64,000 nucleotides of DNA from Deltaproteobacteria bacterium (lineage in GTDB: Bacteria > Myxococcota_A > Polyangia > Fen-1088), in contig JANRKS010000032.1 of NCBI GenBank assembly GCA_033763315.1, forward strand, positions 256,001-320,000, written 5' to 3'. Each line of letters starts with the position of its first letter. The first letter of the stretch is position 1. The position numbers were made by a program, and so were the translations under genes. Under the pieces are notes generated by a model that saw nothing but the letters and a program-made list of their open reading frames with translations, ran no database searches and had not been told where the DNA came from. Positions 1 to 18,924 of the stretch are shown piece after piece.

Positions 1-3000
1 CAACACGCGCATCGCTTCACGATCATCAGGCGCATCGTCGACGATCACGCGGTAAAGCGATCGTGCGCGCGCCTTGTCGCCCAACGTCTCCAACGCCAAT
101 TTGGCGGCCTTGCGCCGCAGCCCTCGCACCAACGCCGTGGGCAATGGCCAGCCGCTCAACTCCACCTGCAGATTCACGGCACGCAGGGCATCGGCTTTGC
201 TCCCGCTGCTCAACCACAGCGAAGTCAGCGCGCTTGTGGATTGTTCCACCGCGGTGCCCACGTCAACTTTGCCAGCCGGCGTAGCGTCAGTGCGCATGAG
301 GTGCGACGCTTGTGCCAACAGCGCCAAGGCGCGCTGGGTGATCAGCGCGGCGTCGGCCAACGGATCTTGGGCCACACGCAAGGCTTCGCTGCCTGCATCA
401 AGGGACTCAGGCGCCAACGTCATCAGGTGGCAAAGCGTGGCGAACAGGGGCTTGCCCGGTTGCTTGCGCTGGGTTTGCGCCAAGCGCTCCCACGTGGGCG
501 TGTGCGTGGGGCTTTGCTTTGCGGCCCGCACCAACGCGGCTTCCATGCGCGCCTGTGCTTCGGGCGCGTGCGTTTCACACCAAGCCGCAATTTGCAGTTC
601 AAGATCGCGCGCCAACGCTTCGGGCAAGCCCGTGCGTTTGGCCAACGCTTCTGCCAGCGCATCACAGGCGGGCAGCCAGGCACCGGCGTTCTTGATCGCG
701 GCCTCGAACGCCGGCAACAACAAACCTTTCACAACCTCCGTGGAGGCGGGCGTGCGCAACATGGCTTCCGCCGCCACGGCCCATTGCTCAAGCCCTCCGG
801 CCACGCGCACCACCGCCAACTTGACCGCGGTGCGGTCGGGAGCGAGGCTCAGTGCCGCTTGGTAAGCGGCCAACGCCGCCGGCGCATCGTGCGCTTTGTT
901 TTCAAGGCAATCGCCTTGCGCCAGCCGCAGATTCAACTTGCGTGATTCGCCGTCGCTCAAGGCGGACGCGGCCTTGCCCAAGACATCTGCCGCGGCCTTC
1001 CACGACTCGGAGCTATCGCAAAGACGCAAAAGCTCGATCTCTAGGTGCGCGTTGTGGGGTGTGAGCACCAACGCTTCGCCCAACAGGGCGCGCGCCGTGG
1101 CATCATCGTGTTCCGTGCTTTGCACCCGCGACGCAAGCTCTGCCAGTACACGAGATTTGCTGGCCGGATCGGCGAGCACATTCAGGCGCTTGTCGGTCAG
1201 CGCGAGCAAAGCCGGCACTTCGCCAGCCACATCGAAGGCGCGGGCCAGCGCCGCCACGGCCGTGCGGCTGGCCAGTGGGTTTTCGAGCAGCGCCTGCAAG
1301 CCCGCACGCGCGCCGGCTTCCTTGTGGTCCAGCTGCAAAGCCACGGCGTAGGCTTCGGCGGCCTCACGGGGGCGTTCAAGGTGTAAAGACAGCACGTCGC
1401 CCAGCTGCACATAAGCGTTCACAGAACGCACGTGGTCTTGCTTTGCGATGCCGCCCAAGCGATCGGCCAAGGCGTCCCACTGCTCTTGTTGCGTGTAAAG
1501 CTCGATCAGGCTCTCGGCGGTTTCGACGCTCACGCCAAATCGACGCTCGATCTCAAGCCACGTTTCCGTGGCGTCGGCTTTGCGATCAAGGGCGTCTTCG
1601 TAAACATGCGCCAGCTGCGCCAGATCGTTGCGCTTGGCTTCGTTGTTTTGCGACAGTTCGGCGCGCGCACGCAGAACTTCGGTGAGCCGTTCCCACTGTT
1701 TGGCTTCCACCAAACCGGTCACCAAAGCGTCAAGCGCGTCGGTATCAGTGGACGACAGCGCCAACCGCGCTTCCCACGCGGCCAAGGCGCGCGGCAGATC
1801 ATTGAGCGCAGTGGCAAGCTTTGCGGCGGTGCCCCAAGCCGCTTGTTTTTCCGCAAGCTCAGGCGCCATCTTGGCCAACGTCTCAAGGGCGGCCAACCGA
1901 CGCGCGGGCTCCCCGTAGCGAGCCAAAAGCTTCGTCAAGCGTCGCAGCGCTGTGAGGTGGTGGCCCTGATCGGCGCCCGCGTCCTCGGTCACTCGTTGCA
2001 ACAGCGTGATCGCTTCGCTGTGCCGGCCGCGCACATCGTCTTCCACGCGCGCGGCTTCCAGCAGCAGCGCGGCCCGCAAATTGTCGTCGGTGCTCGACTG
2101 TGCGGCAGCCAACAGGCCTTGCACGTAGACATCGAATCGTTCCGCCACTTCGGCCAGCTGCCGCAAGCGCACACGTGCAGGCGCGTCGGTGGGGCTAAGC
2201 GACAACAATTCAACCAACCGCTCCATGGCGGCCACGTTGTAGTCCTGCGCCGTCAATCGCTCAGAGGCTTCGCGCAGCAGCCGCAGCTTCTCTTCGCCTG
2301 AAGCAAACTCATGGGCCGTCTCAAGCGCCTCCACAATGCGGGCTTTTTCACCCAGCCGCTCGTAGTCGTTGCGCAACAACGCCAGCGCCGTTTGGCGCTG
2401 CTCAGGCGCAGCGTCAGGCATCTTCAAAATGCGTTCAAGCACTTTGCACGCGGCATCGTCTTCGCGCGCCTTAAGCAGCTGCTGCGCATCGAGCAGCGCC
2501 CCGGCGACGTTGCCCAAATGATCCAGGCGCAAGTTCGCGAGGCGTGCGCGCATCTCGTGTTGTTCCGCGCCCACGAGCGTGTCTAGGCGGGCCACCCACA
2601 ACGTTTGCAGATCTTCCCAACGTTGTTCTTTGTCGAGCAGACGTTCCAGCGAGGCCGCCAAATGCGGATCGTTAGGGCGGCTGCGAAACAATTCATTGAG
2701 GTATCCGATCGCGCGATCCGCGCTGCCCAAAAAGTCTTTCGCAACACCGGCGGCTTCTTCCAGAAGCTTGCGGCGGCGCGGGCTCTCTTTGAGGCCTTTG
2801 AGCAGCTGGTCGTAAACGCTGAGCAGCTCCTCCCAGCGTTGGGACACCGACAGCAACAAGGTCAGCCGTTCGGCGGCCCATTCAAGCTCCGGCGCCTTTA
2901 GCAGCAAGCTGCGCAGCAGCTCGATGATCTCATCAGGTGTATCGCCAAACCATTCTTCGTAAAACGAAAGCGCGCGTTTGCCAAGCGTGTCGGCCACCTC

Positions 3001-3246
3001 AACGCTGGCCGTTTTGAGCACTTGCCGGTAAAGCTCGGCGACGTCTTCAGGACGTTGGCGGGCGGCCGCAAGATCTTCAAGCGCGTCCCAGGCGGTGTCG
3101 TCTGTGGGATGCGTGGCCGCGCGGTTTATCGCGGCTGCCAATGCATCGTTTTCAGGACCAGCGGCGCGGGTCATTTCGTCAGAAGGGGCCATCTTGGAAT
3201 CCTTGGAATCCGTGGAGCGCGATGTTCGAGGGTCTGTGAACGTCAT
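1..3246 (-). CDS. Very large TPR/alpha-solenoid repeat protein, myxobacterial type (runs off the left edge, 3' partial)
   Basis: Absent from the ORF track, presumably because its stop lies outside the window. Both ends translated by hand in the same frame: ATG at 3246 (AGGGG upstream) gives MTFTDPRT...DTAWDALEDLAAARQRPEDVAELYRQVL...QRWEELLSVYDQLL; the left edge reads ...APDDREAMRVL. Ala/Leu/Glu/Arg-rich helical repeats. Confidence 0.8.
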   Translation of the reverse strand, partial: MTFTDPRTSRSTDSKDSKMAPSDEMTRAAGPENDALAAAINRAATHPTDDTAWDALEDLAAARQRPEDVAELYRQVLKTASVEVADTLGKRALSFYEEWFGDTPDEIIELLRSLLLKAPELEWAAERLTLLLSVSQRWEELLSVYDQLLKGLKESPRRRKLLEEAAGVAKDFLGSADRAIGYLNELFRSRPNDPHLAASLERLLDKEQRWEDLQTLWVARLDTLVGAEQHEMRARLANLRLDHLGNVAGALLDAQQLLKAREDDAACKVLERILKMPDAAPEQRQTALALLRNDYERLGEKARIVEALETAHEFASGEEKLRLLREASERLTAQDYNVAAMERLVELLSLSPTDAPARVRLRQLAEVAERFDVYVQGLLAAAQSSTDDNLRAALLLEAARVEDDVRGRHSEAITLLQRVTEDAGADQGHHLTALRRLTKLLARYGEPARRLAALETLAKMAPELAEKQAAWGTAAKLATALNDLPRALAAWEARLALSSTDTDALDALVTGLVEAKQWERLTEVLRARAELSQNNEAKRNDLAQLAHVYEDALDRKADATETWLEIERRFGVSVETAESLIELYTQQEQWDALADRLGGIAKQDHVRSVNAYVQLGDVLSLHLERPREAAEAYAVALQLDHKEAGARAGLQALLENPLASRTAVAALARAFDVAGEVPALLALTDKRLNVLADPASKSRVLAELASRVQSTEHDDATARALLGEALVLTPHNAHLEIELLRLCDSSESWKAAADVLGKAASALSDGESRKLNLRLAQGDCLENKAHDAPAALAAYQAALSLAPDRTAVKLAVVRVAGGLEQWAVAAEAMLRTPASTEVVKGLLLPAFEAAIKNAGAWLPACDALAEALAKRTGLPEALARDLELQIAAWCETHAPEAQARMEAALVRAAKQSPTHTPTWERLAQTQRKQPGKPLFATLCHLMTLAPESLDAGSEALRVAQDPLADAALITQRALALLAQASHLMRTDATPAGKVDVGTAVEQSTSALTSLWLSSGSKADALRAVNLQVELSGWPLPTALVRGLRRKAAKLALETLGDKARARSLYRVIVDDAPDDREAMRVL

Positions 3247-3463
3247 GGGGCGCCCCTACGCATCGGCAGCTTGTTGGTGAGACTGAGCTGAACAACGCGC
3301 GCGACATCCCTAACCGTTTCGCCCCCTTGCCGCGGAAAAAAACGTGGCGCAGGGCCCACCAGTTTGCCGCTAGATGCCGCGCACCACAACAACAGGCGTG
3401 CGCAATTGTCGGATGTTCAGTATCGCTTGACGCTGCCATCTTAGGCCCCCAATCTGTTGGGTC

Positions 3464-3952
3464 GTGGCTCCGAAGACTCCCTCAACCGCCGCTGGCACCC
3501 CAATCAAGGTGTTGGGTCGCAACAAACGCGCTCGCCACGACTACCACGTGGAGGAAACGATTGAAGCGGGTTTGGTTTTGGTGGGCAGCGAGGTCAAATC
3601 GTTACGCGATGGCAAGGTGAACCTCACCGATGCCTTTGCCGATTTCTCCAAAGGGGAGGCGTGGCTGCACCAAATGGACGTGTCGACGTACAACTGGGCC
3701 CACACCCGAAACCACGAGGCGCGGCGGCGGCGCAAGTTGCTGATGCACCGGCGCGAGTTGGATCGTCTTGACGGCAAGCTTCGACAAAAGGGCTTCACGC
3801 TGGTGCCGCTTTCAATCTATGAAAAAGAGGGCCGGATGAAGGTGGAGCTGGCCCTCGTTTCAGGCAAGCAGGACTGGGATCGCCGCGAGGACATGAAAAA
3901 GCGCGACGCCAGCCGCGAAATCGATCGCGCGATGTCGTCTCGGCGACGGTAA
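3464..3952 (+). CDS. smpB: SsrA-binding protein SmpB
   Basis: NKRARHDY, EAGLVLVGSEVKSLR, RRRKLLMHRREL, GFTLVPL, GKQDWDRRE motifs. Confidence 0.97.
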   Translation: MAPKTPSTAAGTPIKVLGRNKRARHDYHVEETIEAGLVLVGSEVKSLRDGKVNLTDAFADFSKGEAWLHQMDVSTYNWAHTRNHEARRRRKLLMHRRELDRLDGKLRQKGFTLVPLSIYEKEGRMKVELALVSGKQDWDRREDMKKRDASREIDRAMSSRRR

Positions 3953-4009
3953 CGAGCCCTCGTTTTAGGCCCGCCCGGATCCTGCCGATGGTAGGGGAGG
4001 ACCGTGTTT

Positions 4010-5170
4010 ATGCGCCCTTTTGCGCCCCTCCTTCTCGTTCTGGTGGCTTGTGGTCGTTTGGGTGTGGAATCCCTGGCCGTGGGCGACGCATCCACGGACG
4101 CAGAGCTTGGGCGAGGCTCGCGGGGAGAGCCCGGCGACGATGGCGGCGTGTTTGATTTGGACGGCTTTACGCCCGTGCCTAACGCGGACGACGACGCCGC
4201 CGCGCCCGCTGGCGGTGGGTCGTTCGGCAGTGGAGGCTCCTCTGGAGCCGGCGGCGCTGTGGCCACGGGAGGCACGCCGGGCACGGGCGGTATGAGCGCC
4301 ACGGGAGGTTCGCCGGGCACAGGAGGCATGAGCGCCACGGGAGGCGCGCCCGGCACAGGTGGGGTGGCTGCCACAGGAGGCACCCCTGGAACAGGCGGGG
4401 TGGCCGCCACGGGAGGCACGCCCGGCACAGGCGGAGTGGTGGCCACGGGAGGCACGCCCGGCACGGGTGGCGTGGTTTCGGCGGCGCCATCGGCAGCCAT
4501 CGCTTCGTATTACGGCTCTTGGATCGGCTCAGCCCGCAACGCCAGCCTGACCTACCCGGTGGAGATCGCCGTCGTCGACCGCAACCCCAACGAAAAGCTT
4601 GGCCTGTTTCACATCCCCTCGTTTGACTGCGGCGGCATCACGACGCTAAGCACCTTAGGCACCACGCTGGTCTACAAAGAGACGCTGCTGTTCGACGCGC
4701 GCTCAAATTGTGGACCGGCCGGTACCACAACGTTAACACCCACCGGCTCGGGCACGTTGGACTACGCGTTCTTCGATGGCAAGAAGACGGACCGCGGCTC
4801 ATTGGCCCGGCGGGCCGGCTACATAGGCCCCAGCCCCACCTCGTGGCTCAACGTAAGCTCGCTGTGGAGCGGCTCCACAACGAACCTCAACCCCGGTGGG
4901 GTGCAGACCGTGTATGTGGCGCTGTTTCCGACGAAGGTAGGAAACATTGGGGGGCACGTGGTTTATCCCAGCAAGCGCTGCGGCGGCACGTTGACGCTCA
5001 CCGGGGTTAACGGGCAAACGTTGACGTACGTGGAGAAGCTGTCGCACGCGATCGCAAGTTGCACGGATGGCAACACCGTGACGGCCACGTCGAACGGCGC
5101 CGGGTTGACGTACACGTGGTCGGCAGGCACGGGCGCCAGCGGCTCGGGTACCTTAAGTCTGTTCAAATAG
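4010..5170 (+). CDS. Predicted lipoprotein with Gly/Thr tandem-repeat linker and two similar C-terminal beta domains
   Basis: GGGGAGG RBS; lipobox LVAC; 12-aa repeats; two ~105-aa units, each with W..G, P..CGG..TL, L.Y.E.L and a second Cys. Confidence 0.8.
   Translation: MRPFAPLLLVLVACGRLGVESLAVGDASTDAELGRGSRGEPGDDGGVFDLDGFTPVPNADDDAAAPAGGGSFGSGGSSGAGGAVATGGTPGTGGMSATGGSPGTGGMSATGGAPGTGGVAATGGTPGTGGVAATGGTPGTGGVVATGGTPGTGGVVSAAPSAAIASYYGSWIGSARNASLTYPVEIAVVDRNPNEKLGLFHIPSFDCGGITTLSTLGTTLVYKETLLFDARSNCGPAGTTTLTPTGSGTLDYAFFDGKKTDRGSLARRAGYIGPSPTSWLNVSSLWSGSTTNLNPGGVQTVYVALFPTKVGNIGGHVVYPSKRCGGTLTLTGVNGQTLTYVEKLSHAIASCTDGNTVTATSNGAGLTYTWSAGTGASGSGTLSLFK
4250..4465 (+). repeat. Six 36-bp coding tandem repeats (GGxxATGG[TSA]PGT)
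   Basis: Directly visible in DNA and protein: GGAVATGGTPGT, GGMSATGGSPGT, GGMSATGGAPGT, GGVAATGGTPGT x2, GGVVATGGTPGT. Confidence 0.95.
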
Positions 5171-5172
5171 CG

Positions 5173-5526
5173 TTAGGCAAGCTGCAGCCCGCAGTCGGGG
5201 CAAGCGCCGTCTTGCAACGCGGCCGTCGAAGCGCACGCAGGGCAGGGGGGCTCGCCATCTGTGGCCGCGCCCGTGGCCACGAAGGTGCCTTCACGTTCAA
5301 GCGCTTGGTTCCATTCGTGTTGCATAAGCGCGGCGACCCGCGGCACTTCCGCGGGTGGCACGACCAGATGAATCTTCGGACCGCAACCGCAGCCACCACC
5401 CGTGTCACACGCTTCTTGCGCCCACAACGCGGCTTCAATGCCCTGCGCTTCGCAGGCCTGCAGCAAGCGCTTGAGATCGGTTAACGGGCCCGACATACAC
5501 GGCACCCAATCAGCTCTGTCAGTCAC
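5173..5526 (-). CDS. Small hypothetical protein with C-terminal zinc ribbon
   Basis: CPAC...CPDC pair at the C-terminus and a CDTGGGCGC cluster mid-protein. Confidence 0.75.
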   Translation of the reverse strand: MTDRADWVPCMSGPLTDLKRLLQACEAQGIEAALWAQEACDTGGGCGCGPKIHLVVPPAEVPRVAALMQHEWNQALEREGTFVATGAATDGEPPCPACASTAALQDGACPDCGLQLA

Positions 5527-5557
5527 ATGCTGATGGTAGCACCGCGCGTTCGAAACG

Positions 5558-5585
5558 AAAAAGCCACAGCGCAGGCCGTGGCTTC
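5558..5585 (-). terminator. Probable intrinsic terminator after the CBS gene
   Basis: AAGCCAC(A)GC-GCAG-GC(C)GTGGCTT hairpin with an A-run on the left (U tail on the minus strand), just past the CBS stop. Confidence 0.6.
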
Positions 5586-5603
5586 GGTGGCAGCGGTGCT
5601 GGC

Positions 5604-6026
5604 TTAAGCGGCGCGCAGGCCGTTGGCGGTCACCTTCTTCGCTGCCTTCAAGGCGGCCGCGGTGAAGGGCGCGTCCATCGCAAACAACAGCCCGAGGAAC
5701 TGGCCACCGTCGTCGATCACGGCGATCGAGCTTGTTCCGTAGTGAGACAACGTCGCTTCAGCGTCGCCCAAGGCATCCGTGGGGCGGCAGCTTGGCGCTT
5801 TGCGCGCCATCACGTCTTCGATCGACATCGCGTGCGAAGCGGTTGACCAACGACGAAGTGCGCCGCGCGCGGCATCGGCCGCCACCATGCCCACCAAACG
5901 TCCCTGGCGGCTCACGACCGGCAAGCTATCCAGTCGATGGTCCATCATCTTCCGCAACGCCGTCTCCACAGAGTCTGTGGGGCGGCACACTGGCACCTTA
6001 CGATTCATCACCTTGTCGACGTTCAT
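5604..6026 (-). CDS. CBS domain pair protein
   Basis: VDKVM...LPVV...GRLVGMV and IEDVM...IAVIDDGGQFLGLL tandem CBS motifs. Confidence 0.9.
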   Translation of the reverse strand: MNVDKVMNRKVPVCRPTDSVETALRKMMDHRLDSLPVVSRQGRLVGMVAADAARGALRRWSTASHAMSIEDVMARKAPSCRPTDALGDAEATLSHYGTSSIAVIDDGGQFLGLLFAMDAPFTAAALKAAKKVTANGLRAA

Positions 6027-6287
6027 GGCAGTTTCCTTACGCGGGCTTTTCGTTCGGAAGCTTACGGTTGCGACTTAAGACGAAATCACATGCCGGACGC
6101 GGTTTTTCCGAACGCCAACGCAGTGTAGAGGAGCGGTTGTAACGGGACTGCCAAAGCTGTGTTGCTATTGAGTAAAGCATTGCAAAAACACGGAAAAACA
6201 CCGCAGAACTTGCGCACGCGTGTAGGCAAAGGAAGGCCTTGGCGCACGTTGCCGCCTGGTGAAGATCGTTGTAGGTGGCGCTGCAAT

Positions 6288-8261
6288 ATGTTTACTCGCG
6301 AACGTGGAAGCCGTTGGTGTGGGGTGTTTATGGTCTTGAGCATGGCCGTGGCGTGCTCACTGCCTCCTGACGAGGAGGAGGATCTCGCTGCCTCTGAAGC
6401 CCTCGAAAGTGGAGGCGCGGGTGGCGCCGGGGCGGTCGGCGGCGACACGCCCTCGGGCGGCGGCGGAAGTTTCGTCGGCACGGGTGGAGCGGGCACCGGG
6501 GGGGGCTCTGGCGGCACAGCAGGCTCTGGCGGCACAGCAGGCGGAGGCGGCACAGCAGGCGGAGGCACGGCGGGTGGCGGCGCCGGAGGCACGAGTACCA
6601 CTGGTGGCGTCGACATCGACGTTGATCGAAACCGCAACGACAGGGTCGACGACCTCATCGACGATCCGGACGAAGAGCTTCCCATTAAATTTGTGGAACG
6701 CTTGGGGGCGCTTGTTCTGGTCAACTGCGACAGCGATGTGGGACGCACGGCGCGTGACATGGAGGACTTCGACATCGCGGGAGCCGACGACCTGCAGGAT
6801 CTTTCGCCGTTGTCGCTTGAACTCAAAGAAGATCTCAAGCCCAGCGAAGAATTGTGGCTGGTGCTCAAGTCGAAATCTGCTGACGGCAAACTTTGGATCA
6901 ACGTCCTCGATTCGTGGGGTGGCAAGGACAAAGTTTTGGTGGGACCTACGCCTCACGTCGCCGAAGTCAGGCTCGACAACCTTTCTATCGAAGGCAGCGC
7001 CGTCATCTTTCCGGGCGGAACCAAACAGCGCTACAACGACCGCTTTTACATTGAAGGGCTCAACTTCAACAAAGAGATGGAGTTGACCCTCGAAATTCGC
7101 GGCGGCGCGTCTGAAATCAAAGACGTTGTACGCGTGCGGACCACGCCTTGGCTGGCAAACAACAACACGCAGCCTCTGGCGACACCTGCGGCGTGGTCCA
7201 TCCCCGCGAATTTGGCGAATTCAGACTCATACAGGTTCTTGCAAGCGCACGGCGCCACAATGCAAAGCGCGGGTACGGCCCTCGAATTCGTTCAAGACTC
7301 AGTTGAATGGGGTTTTCAGGTGCGACGACGCAACGATGTTCCTGGCTTCTCCCGAGCCATGATCACAGGCTTGCGCTTGTATTCTAAGTGGGAAGACAAA
7401 CACCCTCTCACCCAGTACCTAAGCGCTAAAGTGGGCGTCTATGGCTATGCGACTACGGGCAACAGCGCTGTGTCTTTTGAGCCTTACATTGATCCACCAC
7501 ATTTTACCGATGGCAGTGGCGATCAAGGCGGAAACCTAGAGTGTCTGCCTCCCTCTGTCGCATTTCCCTTCGGTCGCTTGGTTTATGGCGACACGATGTC
7601 GACTGTGCTCCGCGATTTTCTGGCGGCCCAAGAAGTGCAGACCTCGGGTGCGGGCCCTGTGGTGCTGCCCGTGAGCAAGCTAAGCCTGGCGCATGTCGAT
7701 GAGGTCCTGTTTATCGCGCCTGCCAAGAATGCTTACATTGTTGGCATGCCCGATTGGGTGCTGGGTTCCAAGCTCATGGGGAGGTCGAAGAGCGTTCAAC
7801 ACAACGTTCGTCTGGTCGCTCAAGGCGCGAACGATCTTGCCACCTACGGCGACATTCTAAAGTGGCTCAAGAAAGACGGGCAAGCCACGGACAAGTTGTT
7901 CAGCGGCACACTCATCGGGATGCAAAATCAAATCGCAGGTGCCGGTGCGCCCGTGGTGAAGTTGCCCGGACTGTTTTTGGAGGCCGCGGGCGATGTCATG
8001 AATTCTGACAGCCTGCGGGGCTTTCCACGCAACATTGCCAACAGCCAGCCCACCGTGCCTGGCAAATTGGTGGTGTCAGCCCCTCCCAACCAAACAGTAG
8101 GTAAGCAAAAGGAATCCGAGAGCCTCTTCTTACAGGAATGGAAGAAGCTCTTGAAGGCGCAAGGCATCGCCGCCGAGCCTGAGAACATGCGTACGGCGTG
8201 GCTAAAGGGCGGCGAAGCTCATTGTTCGTCGAACACGTTGCGCGAGCCAATTCGTAAGTAG
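6288..8261 (+). CDS. Protein-arginine deiminase (PADI-like, PAD_M + catalytic PAD domain), predicted lipoprotein
   Basis: LVNCDSD...DLQDLS, FVQDSVEWG, GGNLECLPP..FPFGRLVYG, FLAAQEVQ, LAHVDEVL and GGEAHCSSN match PADI motifs in order. ATG 6288 follows AGGTGG; lipobox-like AVAC then a Gly-rich linker. Confidence 0.9.
   Translation: MFTRERGSRWCGVFMVLSMAVACSLPPDEEEDLAASEALESGGAGGAGAVGGDTPSGGGGSFVGTGGAGTGGGSGGTAGSGGTAGGGGTAGGGTAGGGAGGTSTTGGVDIDVDRNRNDRVDDLIDDPDEELPIKFVERLGALVLVNCDSDVGRTARDMEDFDIAGADDLQDLSPLSLELKEDLKPSEELWLVLKSKSADGKLWINVLDSWGGKDKVLVGPTPHVAEVRLDNLSIEGSAVIFPGGTKQRYNDRFYIEGLNFNKEMELTLEIRGGASEIKDVVRVRTTPWLANNNTQPLATPAAWSIPANLANSDSYRFLQAHGATMQSAGTALEFVQDSVEWGFQVRRRNDVPGFSRAMITGLRLYSKWEDKHPLTQYLSAKVGVYGYATTGNSAVSFEPYIDPPHFTDGSGDQGGNLECLPPSVAFPFGRLVYGDTMSTVLRDFLAAQEVQTSGAGPVVLPVSKLSLAHVDEVLFIAPAKNAYIVGMPDWVLGSKLMGRSKSVQHNVRLVAQGANDLATYGDILKWLKKDGQATDKLFSGTLIGMQNQIAGAGAPVVKLPGLFLEAAGDVMNSDSLRGFPRNIANSQPTVPGKLVVSAPPNQTVGKQKESESLFLQEWKKLLKAQGIAAEPENMRTAWLKGGEAHCSSNTLREPIRK
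6504..6557 (+). repeat. Three 18-bp coding repeats (G[SG]GGTA) in the PADI linker
   Basis: ggctctggcggcacagca x2 followed by ggcggaggcggcacagca. Confidence 0.85.
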
Positions 8262-8275
8262 GAGTCAAGCTCGAT

Positions 8276-8330
8276 CCTGCGTTCGCAGCCTTGACGGCGT
8301 TCAAATCGCCGTCGTTGGCTGCCGCGCGGG
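8276..8330. other. Intergenic inverted repeat (stem-loop) between the PADI gene and the next gene
   Basis: GCAGCC-TT-GACGGCG / loop TTCAAAT / CGCCGTC-GTT-GGCTGC, extendable by CCTGCG/CGCGGG; no clean U tract. Confidence 0.55.
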
Positions 8331-8405
8331 TGAGTTTCTTAATGTGGCTGATCGAAATGCCGATGACCGCACCCTGACGGTCTCGAACCGTCCCAATCTC
8401 GAAGG

Positions 8406-10508
8406 ATGGGTATGGTTCACATTTCGCGACCGCACTGTATGTCTCTTTTGCTTATCGCCTCCGTGTGGGGATTGGGAGCATGCGATTCTGACCCGGCGGT
8501 CTGTGCCGTTGATGACGCCGGAGTCACGCTGCCTGACGCCGAACCTCCGCCCGAATCGAATGGAACGCAGACCGTTACGACGCAGGAGAAGCTGCCCAAA
8601 AGCTTCGTCCTCGACGATTCGCTTGAACTTCAGGTGCAATCAGGACGATGGACAACCACCACGCAATACGATGGGAGTTACCAGCCTGCGCAGCCCAGGG
8701 GCTCGCAAATTAACATCAGCGGCACTGTAAGCCTCAAGGCAGGGCCCTACGCCTACTCCCTCAATGGTGCCAGCATCAACATCAACAGTTTCAGTTACCC
8801 CCGCGCTGGCTATCGTGCCGACTACTTGTATGGCTACGCGCGGGTCACAATGCCGGCGCTCCACACGTTTTCGGGAATCAACAGCCCGTTGACGGCTCAG
8901 CTGGGGTTCGGTGAAGGATCCAGTTCTACGCTCAAGGCCTTGGGGATGCCGTTGGCGCCCTCGCGCCACTACTTCTATTTCACCACCACCGCTGGTCTTT
9001 CGTCGTCGTTTGGCACGGGCCCGTTTAGCGCGGACACCAGCCGCACAACCACGGTGATCGTGGACCCGAAGGATCCCGCGTTCTTTGTCGCAGGTCCCAT
9101 GGGGCCTATCTCGGCCGTCGCGTTGTCAGAAAAATCACTGATTCCTTTCAACGCGCAAACGCAGTGGGGGTTCGACACGCCCACCGATGAGTTTCCTTCG
9201 TTTAGCGGTCAAAGCTACATTGCCGGCGAAGTGTCACTGGAAGAGATCCCGATTACGGTCAGTGGCAACGTCACCACAAAATTCGTGAACTGGGATGGAC
9301 AAAGTGCGCTCGACAAAAAACTGTTCGAGCACACCCTGGGCATCAATGGTTCGTTCAACCTAGGATGGGATTTCTTGGACGGGCTGTTTCGCTTGGAGGT
9401 GCCTTTGTCGAAGGCTTCGCTTTACATGGCGTCCACCGTTCATCCCTACAAGGTGAATGCGGCTGTCAGTGGAACGGCTGGCACCGCCACGTTCATGCCT
9501 TCGTGGCTGCCTGTGCTGATGAGTGCCAACAGCAACTTCGCGGGTTACCTGGACACATCGGATGTTTCACGAAACCACATCGATGGCATGAGCGACATCA
9601 CGCTGAAGGCGTCGACCCTCGGCAAGGTCATCGGCATCGATATGAAGGACATCACGATGCAAAACGGCACGTACCACGTCGACAAGATGGGGTTCCGATA
9701 CAACGGCGAAGGCGTTGTTTCGGTGATCCCGTTCATCGAATCCACCAGCTACCGCGTTACGGCGTGTTTTGGCGGTGATACCAAGGCGTGTTTATCCGAC
9801 GATCAAACAGGTACGCCCGTTATGGGGTCCAAGGATTGGCTGTTGCGGCTGGAGGGGGATGCGTCTGTGTTCAACGTGCCTCTTTTGAACGCCACCACCA
9901 TGGCGAGCCCGCAAGGGATTTCGGTTGCAGCCACGTTCAAGACGCAGGGTCAGCGCGTGGCCATCACGGGGGCGCTGACCCCCGGACCGACGCCTGCGTC
10001 ACCGCACGTTGCTTTGACGGGGACCGCATCGTTTAGCCTTCCCCTCATCGGAATCAATGAGATTTTGGCAACCGCCGTGGCCGATGGCAGTTGCGGCTAT
10101 GACAAGATCACCGACGCCGCCAAATGCGGTTACAACCTTCTGAGTCAGGTGGGTGACATTTGCGGCGCCCCCCACTGCTCTTGGTCGTGGAAGCATGGCC
10201 TCAGGTGTAAGGCGATTTCTTGCCAAGTGAAGGTGGCGAAGACGTGCAACGGCTTAGCGAAAAAATGCCCCCCACCAAACGATGACCTCGGCAGGATCGA
10301 CGGCTCCGTTGCGCTCACAATCAACGAGCAAGGGATGTCTGGAAAAATGACGGGGCGGTTCTGCCCCGTGGGCAATGGCTCGTGCTCGTCGTTGTCAGAA
10401 GTTGGGACTTTGGATTTTTCGCAGATATCGAATCCAAAGATCTGCATCAACAGCAACGAGATCTCGTCAACGCTTCCTATTGGAAAGAAGTTCTGTGTGT
10501 CCTTCTAA
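8406..10508 (+). CDS. Hypothetical lipoprotein, beta-rich, with Cys-rich C-terminus
   Basis: 700-aa ORF; lipobox LGAC; Ser/Thr/Gly-rich beta-type body; 12 Cys in the last ~140 aa. Confidence 0.8.
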   Translation: MGMVHISRPHCMSLLLIASVWGLGACDSDPAVCAVDDAGVTLPDAEPPPESNGTQTVTTQEKLPKSFVLDDSLELQVQSGRWTTTTQYDGSYQPAQPRGSQINISGTVSLKAGPYAYSLNGASININSFSYPRAGYRADYLYGYARVTMPALHTFSGINSPLTAQLGFGEGSSSTLKALGMPLAPSRHYFYFTTTAGLSSSFGTGPFSADTSRTTTVIVDPKDPAFFVAGPMGPISAVALSEKSLIPFNAQTQWGFDTPTDEFPSFSGQSYIAGEVSLEEIPITVSGNVTTKFVNWDGQSALDKKLFEHTLGINGSFNLGWDFLDGLFRLEVPLSKASLYMASTVHPYKVNAAVSGTAGTATFMPSWLPVLMSANSNFAGYLDTSDVSRNHIDGMSDITLKASTLGKVIGIDMKDITMQNGTYHVDKMGFRYNGEGVVSVIPFIESTSYRVTACFGGDTKACLSDDQTGTPVMGSKDWLLRLEGDASVFNVPLLNATTMASPQGISVAATFKTQGQRVAITGALTPGPTPASPHVALTGTASFSLPLIGINEILATAVADGSCGYDKITDAAKCGYNLLSQVGDICGAPHCSWSWKHGLRCKAISCQVKVAKTCNGLAKKCPPPNDDLGRIDGSVALTINEQGMSGKMTGRFCPVGNGSCSSLSEVGTLDFSQISNPKICINSNEISSTLPIGKKFCVSF

Positions 10509-12669
10509 GAAATATGCAGCACGCTTTGCCGTCTTCGGATGGGTGGCGGTTGGGTTAATGGCGTGCACCGCCTCCGAGCCCACGCCGAACGCCCACATCG
10601 CGATTGTTATAGGGAGCCCTGGCACCAAGTCTGCGGCCTTGCGGCCCGTGTATGATTGGGCGATTGCCGCTGTCAATGATCGAGGCGGCGCGGGCCGCCG
10701 CAAGCTTGAGGCGAAATACTTCGACCTCACGGATCCAGTTGTCGCATCGCCCTCGGCACAGGAGGCGTTGGCCGCACAGATATTGGCGGACCCAGATTTG
10801 GTCGCCGTTGCGGGCCTCTTCTCGTTCGCCATGGCGCCCAAGTTTGTGGCGGCGCGTGTTCCCTATATATCTCCCGAAACGGGCGACGATGACGTGTTTC
10901 GAGCGTTTTCGGCGGGCGGGTATGTCTGGCGTACGCTTGAGTCAGACAGCACGCAGCTGTGGTTCATGCTTGCCGAAGCCAAAGGCCGCGGTGAGAAAAG
11001 TATGCAACCTACAACCAGCGTGGGGCTGCTGACGAGCACCGATCCCTACGGGGACACGTTCTTCGACTGGTACGGGTTTCATGCCACGGAACTTGGTCTG
11101 AAGGCTTTGCCTCCCGTGCAATACGATCAAAGCACGGGAACATGTGAACCAGCCGTAGATCGATTGTTATCGCAAGGCACACCGGATTTTCTCATCGCTG
11201 TGCCTAGTGGCCCCGATCCGGTGTTTCAGGCCACGTGCATTGTCCGCACTATGAAGGCGCTGGCGCCGACAACGAAGGTTTTGTTGGCCAATTCCGCACA
11301 CGTTCCCTCGCTTATCACGTCCCTTGGAGCCGACGCCGAAGGCTTGTCAGGCTTCAGCGCGGCGCCGGATCCCAACGCGGGATTTGCCGAAGCCTTCACA
11401 AAGTTCACAAAGCTTGACCAGGCGCCCGAGTATGCCGCCAACACGTTGGACGCGATCGCCTTGCTTGCCTACGGCCTTGAGAAGTCGCGTGGCAGGGGGG
11501 GCAAGGATTTGGATCTGGCGATGCGATCTGTGGTCAGCGGCCAAGGCGAGAAAACCACGTGGCAGGCGTTCGACCAAACCTTGGCGTTGATTCGCGACGG
11601 GCAGAGCCCGGACGTCTCCGGCGCTTCGGGGCCGCTCTCCTTCGACAAAGACGTTTATACCGATCCAACCTCGTCCTTCTACGATCGTTGGGAGGTGCAA
11701 GGCGGCGCTTTCAAGATCACGCATCACGTGACCACCGCCACCGAAGCGAGTCCGAATGTGTCGTCGCAGTCCGCTGTGGCGCGCGGGCTCAAGGCGATGA
11801 ATGTGCAGGCGATGGTGGGCTCTGGGGGCACGGCCAACCTGCCACCGGTTGCCAACAACTGGGCGTTGGTGATTGCCACATCGGCCACCTGGAAGAACTA
11901 CCGCCATCAAGCCGACGCTTTGGCACACTACCAGGCGCTTCGGGCCAATGGATTTGACGATGACCACGTTGTTCTGATCACTGTGGATGATTTGGCCGAC
12001 GCGCCTGAGAACATCCGCAAAGGACAGGTCATCAACGAGCCAGGCGGCGCCAATGTGCGCGGGGGCGCCGCGAATGATTATGTGGGAACGTCGCTTACGC
12101 CCAGCCAACTTATGACGGTGCTCGAAGGTGGAACCGATCCGGCTTTGCCGGTGGTCTTGCACAGCCAAGCCAATGACAACATTTATGTCTTTATCGTCGG
12201 CCACGGTGGCTTCGAGGGACCGTACCTGGGCATGGATGTGCGCGCGGCAGAGACGATTGATGAGGATAACTATCTTTCTCCCGAGCTGTTTGCCTCAACC
12301 GTGGCGCGCATGAAACAAAACCACCGCTTTCGTCGCATGCTGATTGCCGTGGACGCATGCCATTCAGGCGTGTTGGCGCCGGCCTTTGAGGCGATGGCGA
12401 TCCCTGACGTCGTTGTGTTTGCGGCCGCGAGCGACGCGGAGAGCTCGTTCTCAGCCAATTACGTCAGCGAGCTTGGGGTGTGGAGCGCTGACCAGTTTTC
12501 CTTCAACATGCTTAAGCAAGTGCGTAGCCCCAATGTTTCCATTCGTGAACTCTACACGCGGCTATACGAAGGCGTGGCGGGCTCTCACGTGCAGGTGGCC
12601 AACCAACAAAACTTCGGCGCCACCACGCAGATCATGCTGAGTGAGTTTGTGAAGCCCAACGCGCTCTAG
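10495..12669 (+). CDS. Lipoprotein fusion: type I periplasmic solute-binding domain (LivJ-like) + peptidase C13 (legumain/GPI8-like)
   Basis: GTG 10495 gives a signal ending LMAC. N-half: AIAAVNDRGG.G.RKL, YAANTLDAIALLAYG, GASGPLSFD. C-half: NWALVIA, NYRHQAD, NIYVFIVGHGG, DACHSG (His/Cys dyad). Confidence 0.88.
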   Translation: MCPSKKYAARFAVFGWVAVGLMACTASEPTPNAHIAIVIGSPGTKSAALRPVYDWAIAAVNDRGGAGRRKLEAKYFDLTDPVVASPSAQEALAAQILADPDLVAVAGLFSFAMAPKFVAARVPYISPETGDDDVFRAFSAGGYVWRTLESDSTQLWFMLAEAKGRGEKSMQPTTSVGLLTSTDPYGDTFFDWYGFHATELGLKALPPVQYDQSTGTCEPAVDRLLSQGTPDFLIAVPSGPDPVFQATCIVRTMKALAPTTKVLLANSAHVPSLITSLGADAEGLSGFSAAPDPNAGFAEAFTKFTKLDQAPEYAANTLDAIALLAYGLEKSRGRGGKDLDLAMRSVVSGQGEKTTWQAFDQTLALIRDGQSPDVSGASGPLSFDKDVYTDPTSSFYDRWEVQGGAFKITHHVTTATEASPNVSSQSAVARGLKAMNVQAMVGSGGTANLPPVANNWALVIATSATWKNYRHQADALAHYQALRANGFDDDHVVLITVDDLADAPENIRKGQVINEPGGANVRGGAANDYVGTSLTPSQLMTVLEGGTDPALPVVLHSQANDNIYVFIVGHGGFEGPYLGMDVRAAETIDEDNYLSPELFASTVARMKQNHRFRRMLIAVDACHSGVLAPAFEAMAIPDVVVFAAASDAESSFSANYVSELGVWSADQFSFNMLKQVRSPNVSIRELYTRLYEGVAGSHVQVANQQNFGATTQIMLSEFVKPNAL

Positions 12670-12799
12670 ACGGAACGGTCTGCCTGACGGCAAATGCTGA
12701 AAGATCCTCGGTGCCCGAGCGCACGGTTGCGGCTCAAATTGTCGATGCAAGCGTCGCCACCAATTGTTCCGCCATGGTCCAGCCGCCAGCGGCATCACG

Positions 12800-14095
12800 C
12801 TAAGGGCACGCCTTGATCGACTGGATCCATTCGTCGATGAGCTGCGTACCCAACGGATCGGGAACGGCGGTGCCGATCTGCGGCATGCGAACATTGCTGA
12901 CCTTGCTGTGCATGCGCACCGAGATCATCGAATGGGTTAATTCCCCGAACTGACCAACAGTGCTGTCTCCAGGCGTGAGCAGTTTGATGTTCTGGTACCC
13001 ATAATCGTTCTTGCTGGGAACCACATTGCAGATGCCCATCATCTTGAATGGCGTGTCGTAACGGAAATCTAGGGAAACCGCGTCCATGTTGGTGCGCGGG
13101 TCGATGGTTCCGCCTGGCTGGTGGCAATGTGAACAATTGGCGTGCAGATAAGAGCGTGCTCGCTGTTCGAGTGTGGCCCCCACTGTGTACACGGGCGTGG
13201 GCAAAGCTGGCAGCTTGGCGAGGTCGCCCGGAGCGGTCTCGAACACACCGATGTGGTCCAGCGTCTTTAGCTGGTTGGCACGTTTGCCCATGGGGTAATC
13301 GAACAGCCCATTGAACTGAAGCGTGTCTGGACCAAGCGATCGCCCAGCGGCTTCGGTATGGCAGGTGGCGCAGTTCGTGCGACTGGGGAACGTCCACTCG
13401 TTGTCGCCAAGAAAGCGTGAATCTGAGCCTTCGCCCAAGAGCTCGGCGTCTTTGCCAGCGTCATCCCACTTATAGGTATAGGCCCCCCACATGCCATCGC
13501 TGTGGCGGATCAGGAAGCGCGTTTCCAACATGACGCCATCGAGCGCGAACGACTTCAACAGAACTGTGCCGTTGGGAAAGTCGAAGTCGCCGTTGGTGGT
13601 GAAGCGAACCTTCTTGCCCTCGGGCAAAGCCATCCAACGATGCTTTTCTGCATTGTCGGACCACAGTGGGGACGCCACGCCATAAGGGATCAACCCGGGC
13701 GCGGGCTTGCGTGGGTCGGTTGCGTCAAAGCAGCCTGTGGCGCTGAGCTTTTTGGGGAAAGGATCGTTTGCCGCACCGGTGGGCCGGCCGGGATCCTTGC
13801 AGGTGGTGTTGGCGGGGCGGGTGTCTAGACCGAAATCAGCATTCGCAGGCAAAGGGGCACTGCCGGCCATGCCGCCGCCGCTGGCGCCACCGCTACCCCC
13901 TTGGTTCTTGCCGCCTGAACCGCCACTTGCGGGATCGCCGCCCTTGCCGCCCGCGGCAGGTTCCCCACCTTGGCCGGCCTCGCCACCGCCGTTGCCTCCT
14001 TGGGCGTCATCCGAGCCGCCGGATGACGAGCACGCCGTCACCACACTTACGCAGCCATAAAACAACGAACAGCGTAAAAACTTGCGGAACATCAC
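12800..14095 (-). CDS. Diheme c-type cytochrome lipoprotein (SO2930/HNE_0200-like)
   Basis: Lipobox VTAC; LSATGCF, LIPY..ASPLWSDNAEKHRW, FPNGTVLLKSF; two CxxCH motifs (CATCH, CSHCH); C-terminal RMPQIG...IDEWI. Confidence 0.85.
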   Translation of the reverse strand: MMFRKFLRCSLFYGCVSVVTACSSSGGSDDAQGGNGGGEAGQGGEPAAGGKGGDPASGGSGGKNQGGSGGASGGGMAGSAPLPANADFGLDTRPANTTCKDPGRPTGAANDPFPKKLSATGCFDATDPRKPAPGLIPYGVASPLWSDNAEKHRWMALPEGKKVRFTTNGDFDFPNGTVLLKSFALDGVMLETRFLIRHSDGMWGAYTYKWDDAGKDAELLGEGSDSRFLGDNEWTFPSRTNCATCHTEAAGRSLGPDTLQFNGLFDYPMGKRANQLKTLDHIGVFETAPGDLAKLPALPTPVYTVGATLEQRARSYLHANCSHCHQPGGTIDPRTNMDAVSLDFRYDTPFKMMGICNVVPSKNDYGYQNIKLLTPGDSTVGQFGELTHSMISVRMHSKVSNVRMPQIGTAVPDPLGTQLIDEWIQSIKACP

Positions 14096-14111
14096 AGCAA
14101 GATTAGCACAG

Positions 14112-14126
14112 GCGTTTTGTGTGCCA
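14112..14126 (-). promoter_or_regulatory. Possible sigma54-type -24/-12 element upstream of the diheme gene
   Basis: Minus strand TGGCACACAAAACGC: GG and GC are 10 nt apart, but the consensus TT before GC is missing and the site is very close to the start codon. Confidence 0.2.
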
Positions 14127-14137
14127 TCATTGCATGC

Positions 14138-15271
14138 GTGTTCACGCGTAGACGCCTGTTAAAAATAGGGACCGCGGCCTCCTTAGGCATAGCTGCGGGG
14201 GCCGCCCGCGCCGCCGCTTCGCACGGTGTTTGGGATCCGTCGCGCGCGCGTGTCTGGCAACAACAGCAAGGCTGGTTGGTGGGGTGCAATTACATCCCCA
14301 GCAACGCTGTGAACCAGCTGGAGATGTGGCAGGCGGAGACGTTTAATCTGGCCACCATCAAGCGAGAGGTCGGCTGGGCCGCGAACCTCGGCTTCACCAG
14401 TGTGCGCGTGTTTTTGCATGATCTCCTGTGGGCACAAGATGCCCACGGTTTTACCGACCGGGTTGATGCGTTCCTTGACGTCTTGCACGCGCACAAGATG
14501 GGCGCGTTGCTGGTGTTGTTCGACAGCGTGTGGCACCCCCAGCCACATCTCGGCCCGCAGCCGCCGCCTAAGCCGTTCGTACACAACCCCGGTTGGGTGC
14601 AAAGCCCAGGCGCCGCGCTGTTGCAAGCGCCACGCGCACAACAACGAGTGCTGCTTCAGTATGTCAAAGGCATCGTTTCGCACTTCCGCAACGACAAGCG
14701 TGTGCATGGCTGGGACGTCTGGAATGAGCCTGACAACACGAACAGCGGCAGTTATGGCGAGCTTGAACCCAAAGATAAAGCGGGGCTTGTTTATCCCTTG
14801 TTGCAAGAGGTTTTCCTCTCAGCCCGCGCCGCGAAGCCAACCCAACCGCTGACAAGTGGCGTGTGGGATGGCAACTGGAAATCCGCGGGCACCTTGCAGC
14901 CGCTTGAGACGTTGATGGTGAAGAACTCAGACGTCATAAGCTTTCACTCCTACGGCAAGCCACAAGCGTTGGAGCAAAAGATCAATGAACTGCGCGCGTG
15001 GAAACGTCCCCTTCTGTGCACAGAATTTATGGCTCGCCCCGAAGGCAGCACATTCGAGCCGTGCTTGGAAATCCTCAAGCGCAACAACGTCGGCGCGTAT
15101 TGCTGGGGATTTGTGTCAGGAAAAACGCAAACGATTTATCCGTGGGACTCATGGAAGCGCCCGTATCGCGAGCTTCCAAAGCAATGGTTCCACGACGTTT
15201 TGAATGCTGATGGCACACCTTATGATCCGGCCGAGGTGACGTACATCAAGCGTGTGACGGCAAAGGGCTAA
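14138..15271 (+). CDS. Tat-exported clan GH-A glycoside hydrolase (GH5-like)
   Basis: TRRRLL twin-arginine signal; GCNYIPSNAVNQLEMWQ; WDVWNEP (acid/base Glu); CTEFMAR (nucleophile); GKTQTIYPW. Confidence 0.88.
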   Translation: MFTRRRLLKIGTAASLGIAAGAARAAASHGVWDPSRARVWQQQQGWLVGCNYIPSNAVNQLEMWQAETFNLATIKREVGWAANLGFTSVRVFLHDLLWAQDAHGFTDRVDAFLDVLHAHKMGALLVLFDSVWHPQPHLGPQPPPKPFVHNPGWVQSPGAALLQAPRAQQRVLLQYVKGIVSHFRNDKRVHGWDVWNEPDNTNSGSYGELEPKDKAGLVYPLLQEVFLSARAAKPTQPLTSGVWDGNWKSAGTLQPLETLMVKNSDVISFHSYGKPQALEQKINELRAWKRPLLCTEFMARPEGSTFEPCLEILKRNNVGAYCWGFVSGKTQTIYPWDSWKRPYRELPKQWFHDVLNADGTPYDPAEVTYIKRVTAKG

Positions 15272-15274
15272 GCC

Positions 15275-17113: not shown

Positions 17114-17168
17114 TTGTGGGGGCGGTGTGTGGCTTGCTCCGCTGGCCAGGCGCGGTTACCGTGGCGTT

Positions 17169-18236: not shown

Positions 18237-18918
18237 GCACGCCGTCGCGCATCGTCATCACCTGATGCGAAAGATGCGCCACCATGTGCAGGTCGTGCGA
18301 GATGAATACGTAAGCCAGGCCGTGGCGTTGCTGTAAATCCATCAGCAGGTTTGCGATCTGCGCGCCCACGCTCACGTCCAGCGCCGACAGTGGTTCGTCT
18401 GCCACCAGCAGCTTGGGTTGTGTGCACAGCGCGCGCGCGATCGCCACCCGCTGCTGCTGCCCGCCGGAAAGCTCATGGGGATAGCGCAAGGCGATCGCCT
18501 CGGTCAATCCCACGTCGGCTAAGGCTTGCTGCACGCGTTCCCGATGGTTTTGCTTTGTGGTGGTCACACGCTGCAGTGTTAAAGGCTCGCCCACAATCGC
18601 ACCCACGTGCATGCGCGGGTTCAACGACGCCACCGGGTTTTGAAACACCATGCTCATAAGTCGACTGTGCATGGCACTGCGTTGCGGTGGCAGCGTTTCT
18701 CCTTGCCACAGCAGCGCACCGGCATCCGCGCGTTCAAGCCCCACCACGAGCTTCGCCAACGTGCTTTTGCCACTGCCTGAGGCGCCCACGATCCCCAGCG
18801 TTTGCCCTTCATACACCGTGAATGACGCCTCCTTAACCACGCTGCGTGCGCCGCCCGCATAGCCGTATGACTTGCACAGACCTTGCGCTTGCAGCAACGC
18901 CGGTGAAGCCGCGCTCAT
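18223..18918 (-). CDS. ABC transporter ATP-binding subunit, oligopeptide/dipeptide type
   Basis: [50 protein letters not shown]. Confidence 0.92.
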
Positions 18919-18924
18919 GTGAGC

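Follow-up and report, generated by a model that had tools for sequence, protein, structure and literature searches.

A divergent, predicted lipid-anchored member of the protein-arginine deiminase family in a myxobacterial genome

The DNA analysed here, referred to as the window, is a stretch of 64,000 nucleotides from a Deltaproteobacteria bacterium (Myxococcota_A; Polyangia; Fen-1088), covering positions 256,001 to 320,000 of contig JANRKS010000032.1 of assembly GCA_033763315.1; all positions below are counted from its first letter. A gene at 6288–8261 on the plus strand encodes a 657-residue protein, P0001, which is a two-domain member of the protein-arginine deiminase (PAD) family, with a middle domain (PAD_M) and a catalytic domain (PAD) and a family match that lies far above chance. 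P0001 is predicted to be exported and lipid-anchored, and it belongs to a rare, long-branch clade apart from the PADs of its phylum-mates. An earlier annotation made from the letters alone, the sequence-only reading, had described the product as an animal-type PAD (PADI) built as an exported lipoprotein. The features of the gene are as follows.

6273–6278, plus strand: Shine-Dalgarno-like AGGTGG, 9 nt 5' of ATG 6288 (read from the sequence).
6288–8261, plus strand: gene for a PAD-family predicted lipoprotein (coding sequence, 657 residues and stop; translation as P0001, Pfam, BLASTP homologues).
6288–6356, plus strand: predicted lipoprotein signal peptide, residues 1–23, with n-region MFTRERGSR, h-region WCGVFMVLSMAVA and lipobox MAVAC (pattern script).
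6354–6356, plus strand: codon of the lipobox cysteine, Cys23 (pattern script).
6357–6611, plus strand: linker of about 85 residues (24–108), acidic and then rich in Gly, Thr and Ala (translation; no Pfam domain).
6504–6566, plus strand: 18-bp tandem repeat within the linker (TRF).
6615–7115, plus strand: PAD_M, the immunoglobulin (Ig)-like middle domain, residues 110–276, DIDVDRNRND loop included (Pfam, PAD4 alignment, VIA).
6723–6800, plus strand: acidic cluster of Ca3/Ca5 type, N146 to D171, within PAD_M (PAD4 alignment).
7116–8252, plus strand: PAD catalytic domain, residues 277–655 (Pfam; VIA Z 32).
7296–7298, plus strand: catalytic Asp337, equivalent to PAD4 D350, in the motif FVQDSVE (alignments, profile-to-PAD4 mapping).
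7692–7700, plus strand: His469-Val470-Asp471, equivalent to PAD4 H471 and D473, in LAHVDE (HMMER alignment to PAD4 HVDE).
8223–8225, plus strand: catalytic Cys646, equivalent to PAD4 C645, in the motif GEAHCSSN (HMMER alignment, alignment A2).

The family assignment rests on profile and structure comparisons that agree. Pfam PAD (PF03068) matches residues 277–655 at 49.1 bits (cut-off 25, E 5.4e-13) over profile positions 3–389 of 395, and PAD_M (PF08527) matches residues 110–200 at 30.2 bits (cut-off 24.8, E 3.9e-7), so that both domains expected by the sequence-only reading lie above their gathering cut-offs. No Pfam family beyond these two is matched at E ≤ 1: the PAD_N domain finds no match, residues 1–108 being taken up by the signal peptide and low-complexity linker, and the PAD_porph profile (PF04371) is likewise absent, which agrees with the earlier separation of this protein from enzymes of the Porphyromonas PPAD and agmatine-deiminase type. 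The NCBIfam collection offers no family for P0001, its one hit being DarH at 14.7 bits, below a cut-off of 300. Among protein sequences of the PDB, phmmer ranks human PAD4 first (E 2e-10), followed by PAD2, PAD1, PAD3 and PAD6; a profile built from the subfamily alone reaches PAD2 at E 1e-26, and the identity of P0001 to the human PADs is only 20–25%. Residues 105–657 were folded with AlphaFold2 from the 28-row alignment A1, giving a model with a mean pLDDT (predicted local distance difference test) of 88.5 and a pTM (predicted template modelling score) of 0.90, in which an Ig-like middle domain and an alpha/beta propeller, the hallmarks of the PAD fold, are predicted. Foldseek against the PDB returned human PAD1–4 only, among the matches listed (best E 8e-30), with query-normalised template modelling (TM) scores of 0.62–0.72, rising to 0.69–0.72 for the top-ranked PAD entries bound to calcium or ligand. 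VIA-align superposes the model on PAD4 with a Z of 32.2 and a root-mean-square deviation of 3.0 Å over 463 aligned residues; model residues 1–553 span PAD4 112–656, which comprises the middle and catalytic domains.

Residues were mapped to PAD4 by direct HMMER alignment and by a profile-to-PAD4 alignment combined with hmmalign. The four catalytic positions occur in order at exactly the codons given by the sequence-only reading (7296, 7692–7700 and 8223); D337, H469, D471 and C646 are invariant in all ten sequences of the subfamily alignment A2, and in the wider alignment A1 each position of the tetrad is either invariant or conserved to 90% or more. Three strings that were also singled out earlier, LVLVNCDSD, DMEDFD and DLQDLS, are present and are aligned by HMMER with GAILLVNCDRD, MDCEDDE and DLQDMS of PAD4; in the phmmer alignment GGNLE, HVDE and HC also fall opposite the corresponding PAD4 residues. 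Calcium sites are assigned to PAD4 residues after the PAD4/PAD2 structure literature, and W347, H640 and R374 are taken as the residues in contact with substrate. The sites compare as follows.

Ca3/Ca5-type sites, kept: PAD4 N153, D155, D157, D165, D168, E170, D176 and D179 correspond to N146, D148, D150, D157, D160, D162, D168 and D171.
Ca1-type site, kept: PAD4 Q349, E353 and E411 correspond to Q336, E340 and E418.
Ca2 site, lost: PAD4 E351 is replaced by S338, D369 by R363 and S370 by L364; N373 has no equivalent.
Ca4/switch position, lost: PAD4 D388 (PADI2 D389) is replaced by K381, at a position that varies in the clade (N, K, Q, E, H).
Substrate contacts, not kept: PAD4 W347 is replaced by F334 and H640 by G641; R374 has no clear equivalent.

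The retention of Ca1-type ligands that was proposed from the letters is thus upheld, as are the serine at the E351 position and the absence of a DSPRN segment, in whose place GLRLYSK stands in the profile-to-PAD4 and hmmalign mapping; the suspected loss of the Ca2 site extends to all four of its ligands. According to PMC8826395, the Ca2 and Ca4 sites are exclusive to the cyanobacterial and animal clade, and other bacterial and fungal PADs are without PAD_N; the loss of Ca2 is therefore the general state of two-domain PADs and not a peculiarity of P0001. The label "animal-type" holds at the level of the family and no further, since P0001 lacks PAD_N as well as the ligands of Ca2 and Ca4. The clade has invariant motifs of its own (FVQDxxEWGFQVRR, SRxM, GDQGGNLECLPP and FPRNxANSQPT), which include the clade-specific invariant arginines R346, R347, R356 and R581 of alignment A2, and it ends in HCSSNxIREPIKK without the WW tail of canonical sequences.

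The mechanically listed open reading frame (ORF) around the gene runs from 6159 to 8261 on the plus strand and begins with GTG at 6159. ATG 6288 is preferred as the best start because AGGTGG stands 9 nt 5' of it and because the 43-codon extension from GTG 6159 is AT-rich and is unmatched in any homologue aligned. The closest homologues of P0001 share 40–49% identity with it (BLASTP in a word-indexed search, with seven matches for the protein and 11 for profile A1), and no named canonical, animal or cyanobacterial PAD was among the matches of that search. Two opposite-strand ORFs that overlap the Gly-rich repeats, 6086–6931 and 6357–6956, are considered spurious, and scans for promoters and terminators performed no better than they did on shuffled sequence.

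The N-terminus, MFTRERGSRWCGVFMVLSMAVAC followed by SLPPDEEEDL, shows a basic n-region and then an uncharged h-region, with a cysteine at position 23, and it fits a PROSITE-like lipobox pattern, run as a script, in which the cysteine falls within about the first 35 residues. The same genome encodes the lipoprotein-processing enzymes Lsp (Peptidase_A8, E 8.9e-38) and Lgt, the latter in three Lgt-like genes (LGT, E 1.2e-56). Signal-peptide-like N-termini were recognised by a heuristic in seven of the 10 full-domain subfamily proteins, one of the other three being an N-terminal fragment. That P0001 is a cytoplasmic enzyme whose start was wrongly chosen, or else a non-catalytic binding protein, is regarded as very improbable. 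The reading frame does begin at GTG 6159, and internal ATGs occur at residues 15 and 19; however, the longer form would bury the hydrophobic segment behind the AT-rich, homologue-less extension, with translation from Met15 or Met19 the n-region would be gone and the Gly-rich linker still present, and the homologues have signal peptides of their own. An inactive member of the family does exist in animal PADI6, yet the catalytic tetrad is invariant throughout the clade of P0001, which argues against a pseudoenzyme.

In Myxococcus xanthus, PMC3222651 associates Lys at position +2 with inner-membrane lipoproteins and Ala at +7 with matrix lipoproteins. P0001 has Ser at +2 and Glu at +7 relative to Cys23, neither of which is one of these marks, and the default route to the outer membrane is therefore the best guess; if the Myxococcus sorting rules apply in this different myxobacterial lineage, the protein is most likely anchored in the outer membrane.

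The exported-lipoprotein build proposed by the sequence-only reading is supported by the lipobox match and by the presence of Lsp and Lgt, and it is shared by most of the PADs sampled from the phylum. After own-genome duplicates, one further duplicate and one fragment had been set aside from all the loci returned, 21 other PAD loci of the phylum were left, and in 18 of them a lipobox with an upstream start stands just before PAD_M. As for the remaining three, locus L003 has a lipobox, LWGC, by eye, L002 has no signal and L019 runs off its locus. A predicted lipid anchor is thus the norm for PADs of the phylum and not peculiar to the window gene. Among the library proteins, 119 contain a near-complete PAD_M and PAD pair; 106 of these start with Met, and 56 of the 106 have a signal-peptide-like N-terminus by a crude rule of hydrophobicity and charge.

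PAD-family genes are frequent in this phylum. The window's own genome has one PAD gene; PF03068 was found in five of 41 close-relative genomes, the window's own counted, with none in the two of the same genus and two in the 24 of the same family. Three PADs in this set score 272–325 bits, compared with about 50 for the window gene. At E ≤ 1e-5 the subfamily profile finds a PAD-family match in 77 of 401 phylum genomes, scoring 8.5e-258 in the window's own genome and 5.6e-21 in the next best, and it finds a PAD of the window's clade in none of the 400 other sampled phylum genomes. Several phylum genomes carry two adjacent PAD copies (for example G160 contig C16, G174 C13 and G273 C214). The earlier statement that bacterial PADIs are described mainly from cyanobacteria and actinobacteria is right in naming both groups and too narrow as a whole, as the literature names Proteobacteria too (PMC8826395 and bioRxiv 10.1101/2020.07.16.207027). 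Signal peptides, secretion and lipoproteins are unmentioned in the main texts of these two papers, supplements aside, and literature searches on myxobacterial arginine deiminase or citrullination and on bacterial PAD signal peptides returned nothing on the subject. A PAD in a myxobacterium is not new; the clade, and lipid-anchored PADs as the norm of a phylum, are.

The clade itself is small. Searched exhaustively with phmmer, 1.84 billion representatives yielded 359 matches at E ≤ 1e-3, of which 12 reach E ≤ 1e-30 before a drop to 3e-20, and six clade members scanned against Pfam score only 27–53 bits to PAD. A "quick" LG+G4 tree was built from 78 domain regions: 10 clade members, 16 phylum loci and every second of 104 other library proteins. 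The ten clade members form one group whose SH-aLRT (Shimodaira–Hasegawa-like approximate likelihood ratio test) value is 100 and whose stem measures 1.01 changes per site, and all 16 phylum loci fall elsewhere; library protein P0020 joins the clade in the tree, a join flagged as possible long-branch attraction. A two-motif scan of 185,579 species genomes, from which the window's own genome was possibly left out, confirmed only two clade loci, both in Verrucomicrobiae and both with neighbourhoods unlike that of the window; scans of metagenome contigs with profile A2 and protein P0004 confirmed no relative. In the verrucomicrobial clade members the PAD is joined to modules typical of extracellular proteins, namely Calx-beta, Ig, cadherin-like and LamG. 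On one contig of a Verrucomicrobiae metagenome-assembled genome (locus L008, 5048–11659), a secreted giant protein of 2,203 residues carries the clade PAD at its C-terminus; in its library relative P0009 (2,188 residues) the PAD follows Laminin_G_3, four Calx-beta stretches, Big_9, cadherin-like and CarboxypepD_reg modules.

On its 5' side the PAD gene is preceded by SmpB, a repeat-rich lipoprotein gene, a small ORF and a divergently transcribed CBS gene; on its 3' side a gap of 145 bp is followed by the genes for a 700-residue lipoprotein and a C13 lipoprotein, and then by a cytochrome-c-like gene, a GH5-like gene and RecQ. The two genes next downstream are these.

8406–10508, plus strand: predicted lipoprotein of 700 residues, lipobox LGAC, no Pfam family (ORF listing, Pfam scan).
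10495–12669, plus strand: predicted lipoprotein, lipobox LMAC, with a long N-terminal region without a Pfam match and a C-terminal Peptidase_C13 (legumain-type) domain, E 4e-47.

The 145-bp gap holds no plus-strand terminator-like site, and the 700-residue lipoprotein is possibly co-transcribed with the PAD; the GTG start of the C13 lipoprotein gene (10495) overlaps the stop of the gene before it by 14 nt. Homologues of the 700-residue lipoprotein occur in 14 of 401 phylum genomes, and a 54%-identical paralogue lies in the same genome (L043 5152–7236, on contig C5 of G000) between pectate-lyase-like and phage-tail-lysozyme-like ORFs. The arrangement of exported enzyme, this lipoprotein and exported enzyme therefore occurs twice in the genome. 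An AsmA/TamB-like fold for the 700-residue protein is not claimed, the Atlas structure rows all having a TM below 0.5, and the idea that the PAD works together with the C13 peptidase, as PPAD does with gingipain, was dropped since C13 peptidases are not Arg-specific and the linkage was seen nowhere else. Upstream, at 4004–5170 on the plus strand, the repeat-rich lipoprotein has no Pfam family and contains 36-bp and 108-bp tandem repeats encoding (TGGTPGTGGxxA)n. It is lacking in the same-genus genome G001, where SmpB lies about 25 bp from the homologue of window ORF 5173–5526.

SmpB of G001 is 79% identical to that of the window, and both same-genus genomes keep the order SmpB, small ORF, CBS and RecQ; the distance from CBS to RecQ is only about 2.4–2.6 kb in them, compared with 9.2 kb here. 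In G001 (contig C11, locus L035) this slot contains a methyltransferase-like ORF of 494 residues at 1427–2911 and a thioredoxin-like ORF at about 2900–3471, both named by eye. The slot being shorter in both congeners and filled differently in G001, the PAD and its downstream neighbours form part of a segment that is absent from both and varies within the genus. The segment has a GC content of 0.56–0.60 against 0.61–0.67 upstream, and RecQ downstream is also at 0.58, so that the dip is weak evidence of foreign origin; no tRNA or tmRNA genes were found in positions 1–20000 of the window. The variable segment and the patchy distribution of the clade are together consistent with horizontal acquisition.

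Another idea is that P0001 tailors a ribosomal peptide or other natural product, as does the citrulassin PAD of Streptomyces. In the literature consulted, the sole functionally tied PF03068 enzyme from outside the cyanobacteria is such a tailoring enzyme, and it is encoded apart from the genes for its substrate (bioRxiv 10.1101/2020.07.16.207027). However, no biosynthetic genes lie within 16 kb around the PAD, P0001 belongs to a different, long-branch clade, and the export signal and lipid anchor would place the enzyme outside the cytoplasm and hence away from where such peptides normally mature. A tailoring role is accordingly given very little credence.

P0001 is best read, with a confidence somewhat above even, as a calcium-dependent, extracytoplasmic, lipid-anchored peptidyl-arginine deiminase. 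The type II signal peptide would direct the protein to Sec export and lipidation on Cys23, and the flexible, Gly-rich tether of about 85 residues would hold the enzyme on a membrane, most likely the outer membrane. Calcium in the extracytoplasmic space would occupy the retained sites of Ca1, Ca3 and Ca5 type, and the Asp337/His469/Asp471/Cys646 centre could then hydrolyse the guanidinium of arginine side chains, whether borne by peptides or by proteins, to citrulline and ammonia; deimination would thereby remove positive charge from extracytoplasmic targets. The comparisons above establish the family membership, the predicted fold, the catalytic residues, the export and lipobox signal, the absence of PAD_N and of the Ca2/Ca4 ligands, the position of the clade and the genomic setting. 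We infer the activity, the calcium dependence, the use of peptidyl and not free arginine, the outer-membrane location and any biological role from these features; the role could lie in predation, in defence against cationic peptides or in self-modification.

Several points weigh against this reading. The clade is very divergent (27–53 bits to Pfam PAD, against 272–325 for the three PADs of related genomes). The equivalence of the four catalytic side chains is drawn from sequence alignments, the structural aligners having returned ranges and not residue pairs; the residue at position −3 of the lipobox is Ala and not Leu, which is the commonest. The PAD4 substrate contacts are not kept, W347 being Phe334 and H640 Gly641 with no clear equivalent of R374, and the clade-invariant R346, R347, R356 and R581 could bind a carboxylate, so that the substrate could be something other than internal peptidyl-arginine.

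In an alternative with the same fold and chemistry, the enzyme would act at the surface or in the periplasm on free L-arginine, on a C-terminal peptide arginine as PPAD does, or on another small guanidino compound, and it would serve nitrogen scavenging or detoxification. Asp/His/Asp/Cys centres occur throughout the guanidino-group-modifying superfamily (bioRxiv 10.1101/2020.07.16.207027), and the loss of the PAD4 peptide contacts, the clade's own invariant arginines in QVRR, SRxM and FPRNxANSQ and a nearby gene for an exported protein with a peptidase domain would all suit such a substrate. The proposal, though the strongest of the rivals, is judged unlikely: PAD_M and the overall PAD4-like architecture are kept, the characterised PF03068 enzymes all use peptidyl-arginine as far as PMC8826395 and bioRxiv 10.1101/2020.07.16.207027 describe them, and the neighbouring peptidase is of type C13, which is not Arg-specific, with no such gene set recovered beside other clade members.

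If P0001 and the other exported PADs are active, bacteria would citrullinate targets outside the cytoplasm with a relative of the human enzymes. To our knowledge, the PADI-type enzymes of known function are all intracellular, namely the animal PADs, a cyanobacterial PAD and the citrulassin PAD of Streptomyces, and the calcium dependence of PADIs tends to be treated as a switch inside the cell. In the window gene the family is met as a putative membrane-tethered, exported enzyme, with the same build predicted as the rule across a phylum of predatory soil bacteria; an active enzyme would matter both for how calcium control arose in the family and for microbial warfare, and it could point to environmental sources of citrullinated antigens. 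The window gene is a representative of its clade that can be cloned, and it would test how much the PAD active site can diverge without losing its chemistry. A wider conjecture, judged unlikely, is that extracytoplasmic citrullination is widespread and overlooked in bacteria, most myxobacterial PADI-type enzymes having their lipid anchor outside the cytoplasm and being kept on by the calcium around them. The window gene would in that case stand for a separate clade that moves horizontally and is shared with Verrucomicrobiae; its surface-tethered enzymes would neutralise arginine in the proteins of other cells or in cationic peptides, in predation or competition.

Among known systems, human PAD4 and PAD2 (PF03068, PF08527 and PF08526) share with P0001 the superposable PAD_M and catalytic domains (Z 32), the Asp/His/Asp/Cys centre and the ligands of Ca1 and Ca3/Ca5 type; P0001 differs from them in having no PAD_N, no Ca2 ligands and no C-terminal WW tail, with Lys at the D388 position and Phe at that of W347, and it is predicted to be exported and lipid-anchored, whereas the human enzymes are cytosolic or nuclear. 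It does not belong with the three-domain animal and cyanobacterial PADIs (clade Ai of Cummings), since both PAD_N and the Ca2/Ca4 ligands are lacking. The two-domain bacterial and fungal PADs (clade B of Cummings, and the Streptomyces citrulassin PAD) are likewise without PAD_N, Ca2 and Ca4 (PMC8826395); P0001 stands apart from them in its score to Pfam PAD (49 bits, compared with 272–325 in related genomes), in its separate clade with a stem of about one change per site, and in its own motifs QVRR, GDQGGNLECLPP and FPRNxANSQPT. The canonical lipoprotein PADs of the phylum (L003–L028) have the lipobox directly 5' of PAD_M and often an acidic or Gly-rich linker, as P0001 does, and they fall in other clades, the best reaching E 5.6e-21 to the subfamily profile against 8.5e-258 for the window gene. 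Precedent for the citrullination of peptides by a bacterial PF03068 enzyme is provided by the Streptomyces PAD that makes citrulassin (bioRxiv 10.1101/2020.07.16.207027). The enzyme closest to the role proposed for P0001 is PPAD of Porphyromonas gingivalis (PF04371), a functional analogue which is exported, is associated with the surface and citrullinates peptides; it differs in belonging to another Pfam family, in being calcium-independent and specific for C-terminal Arg, and in its type IX secretion (in part from bioRxiv 10.1101/2020.07.16.207027).

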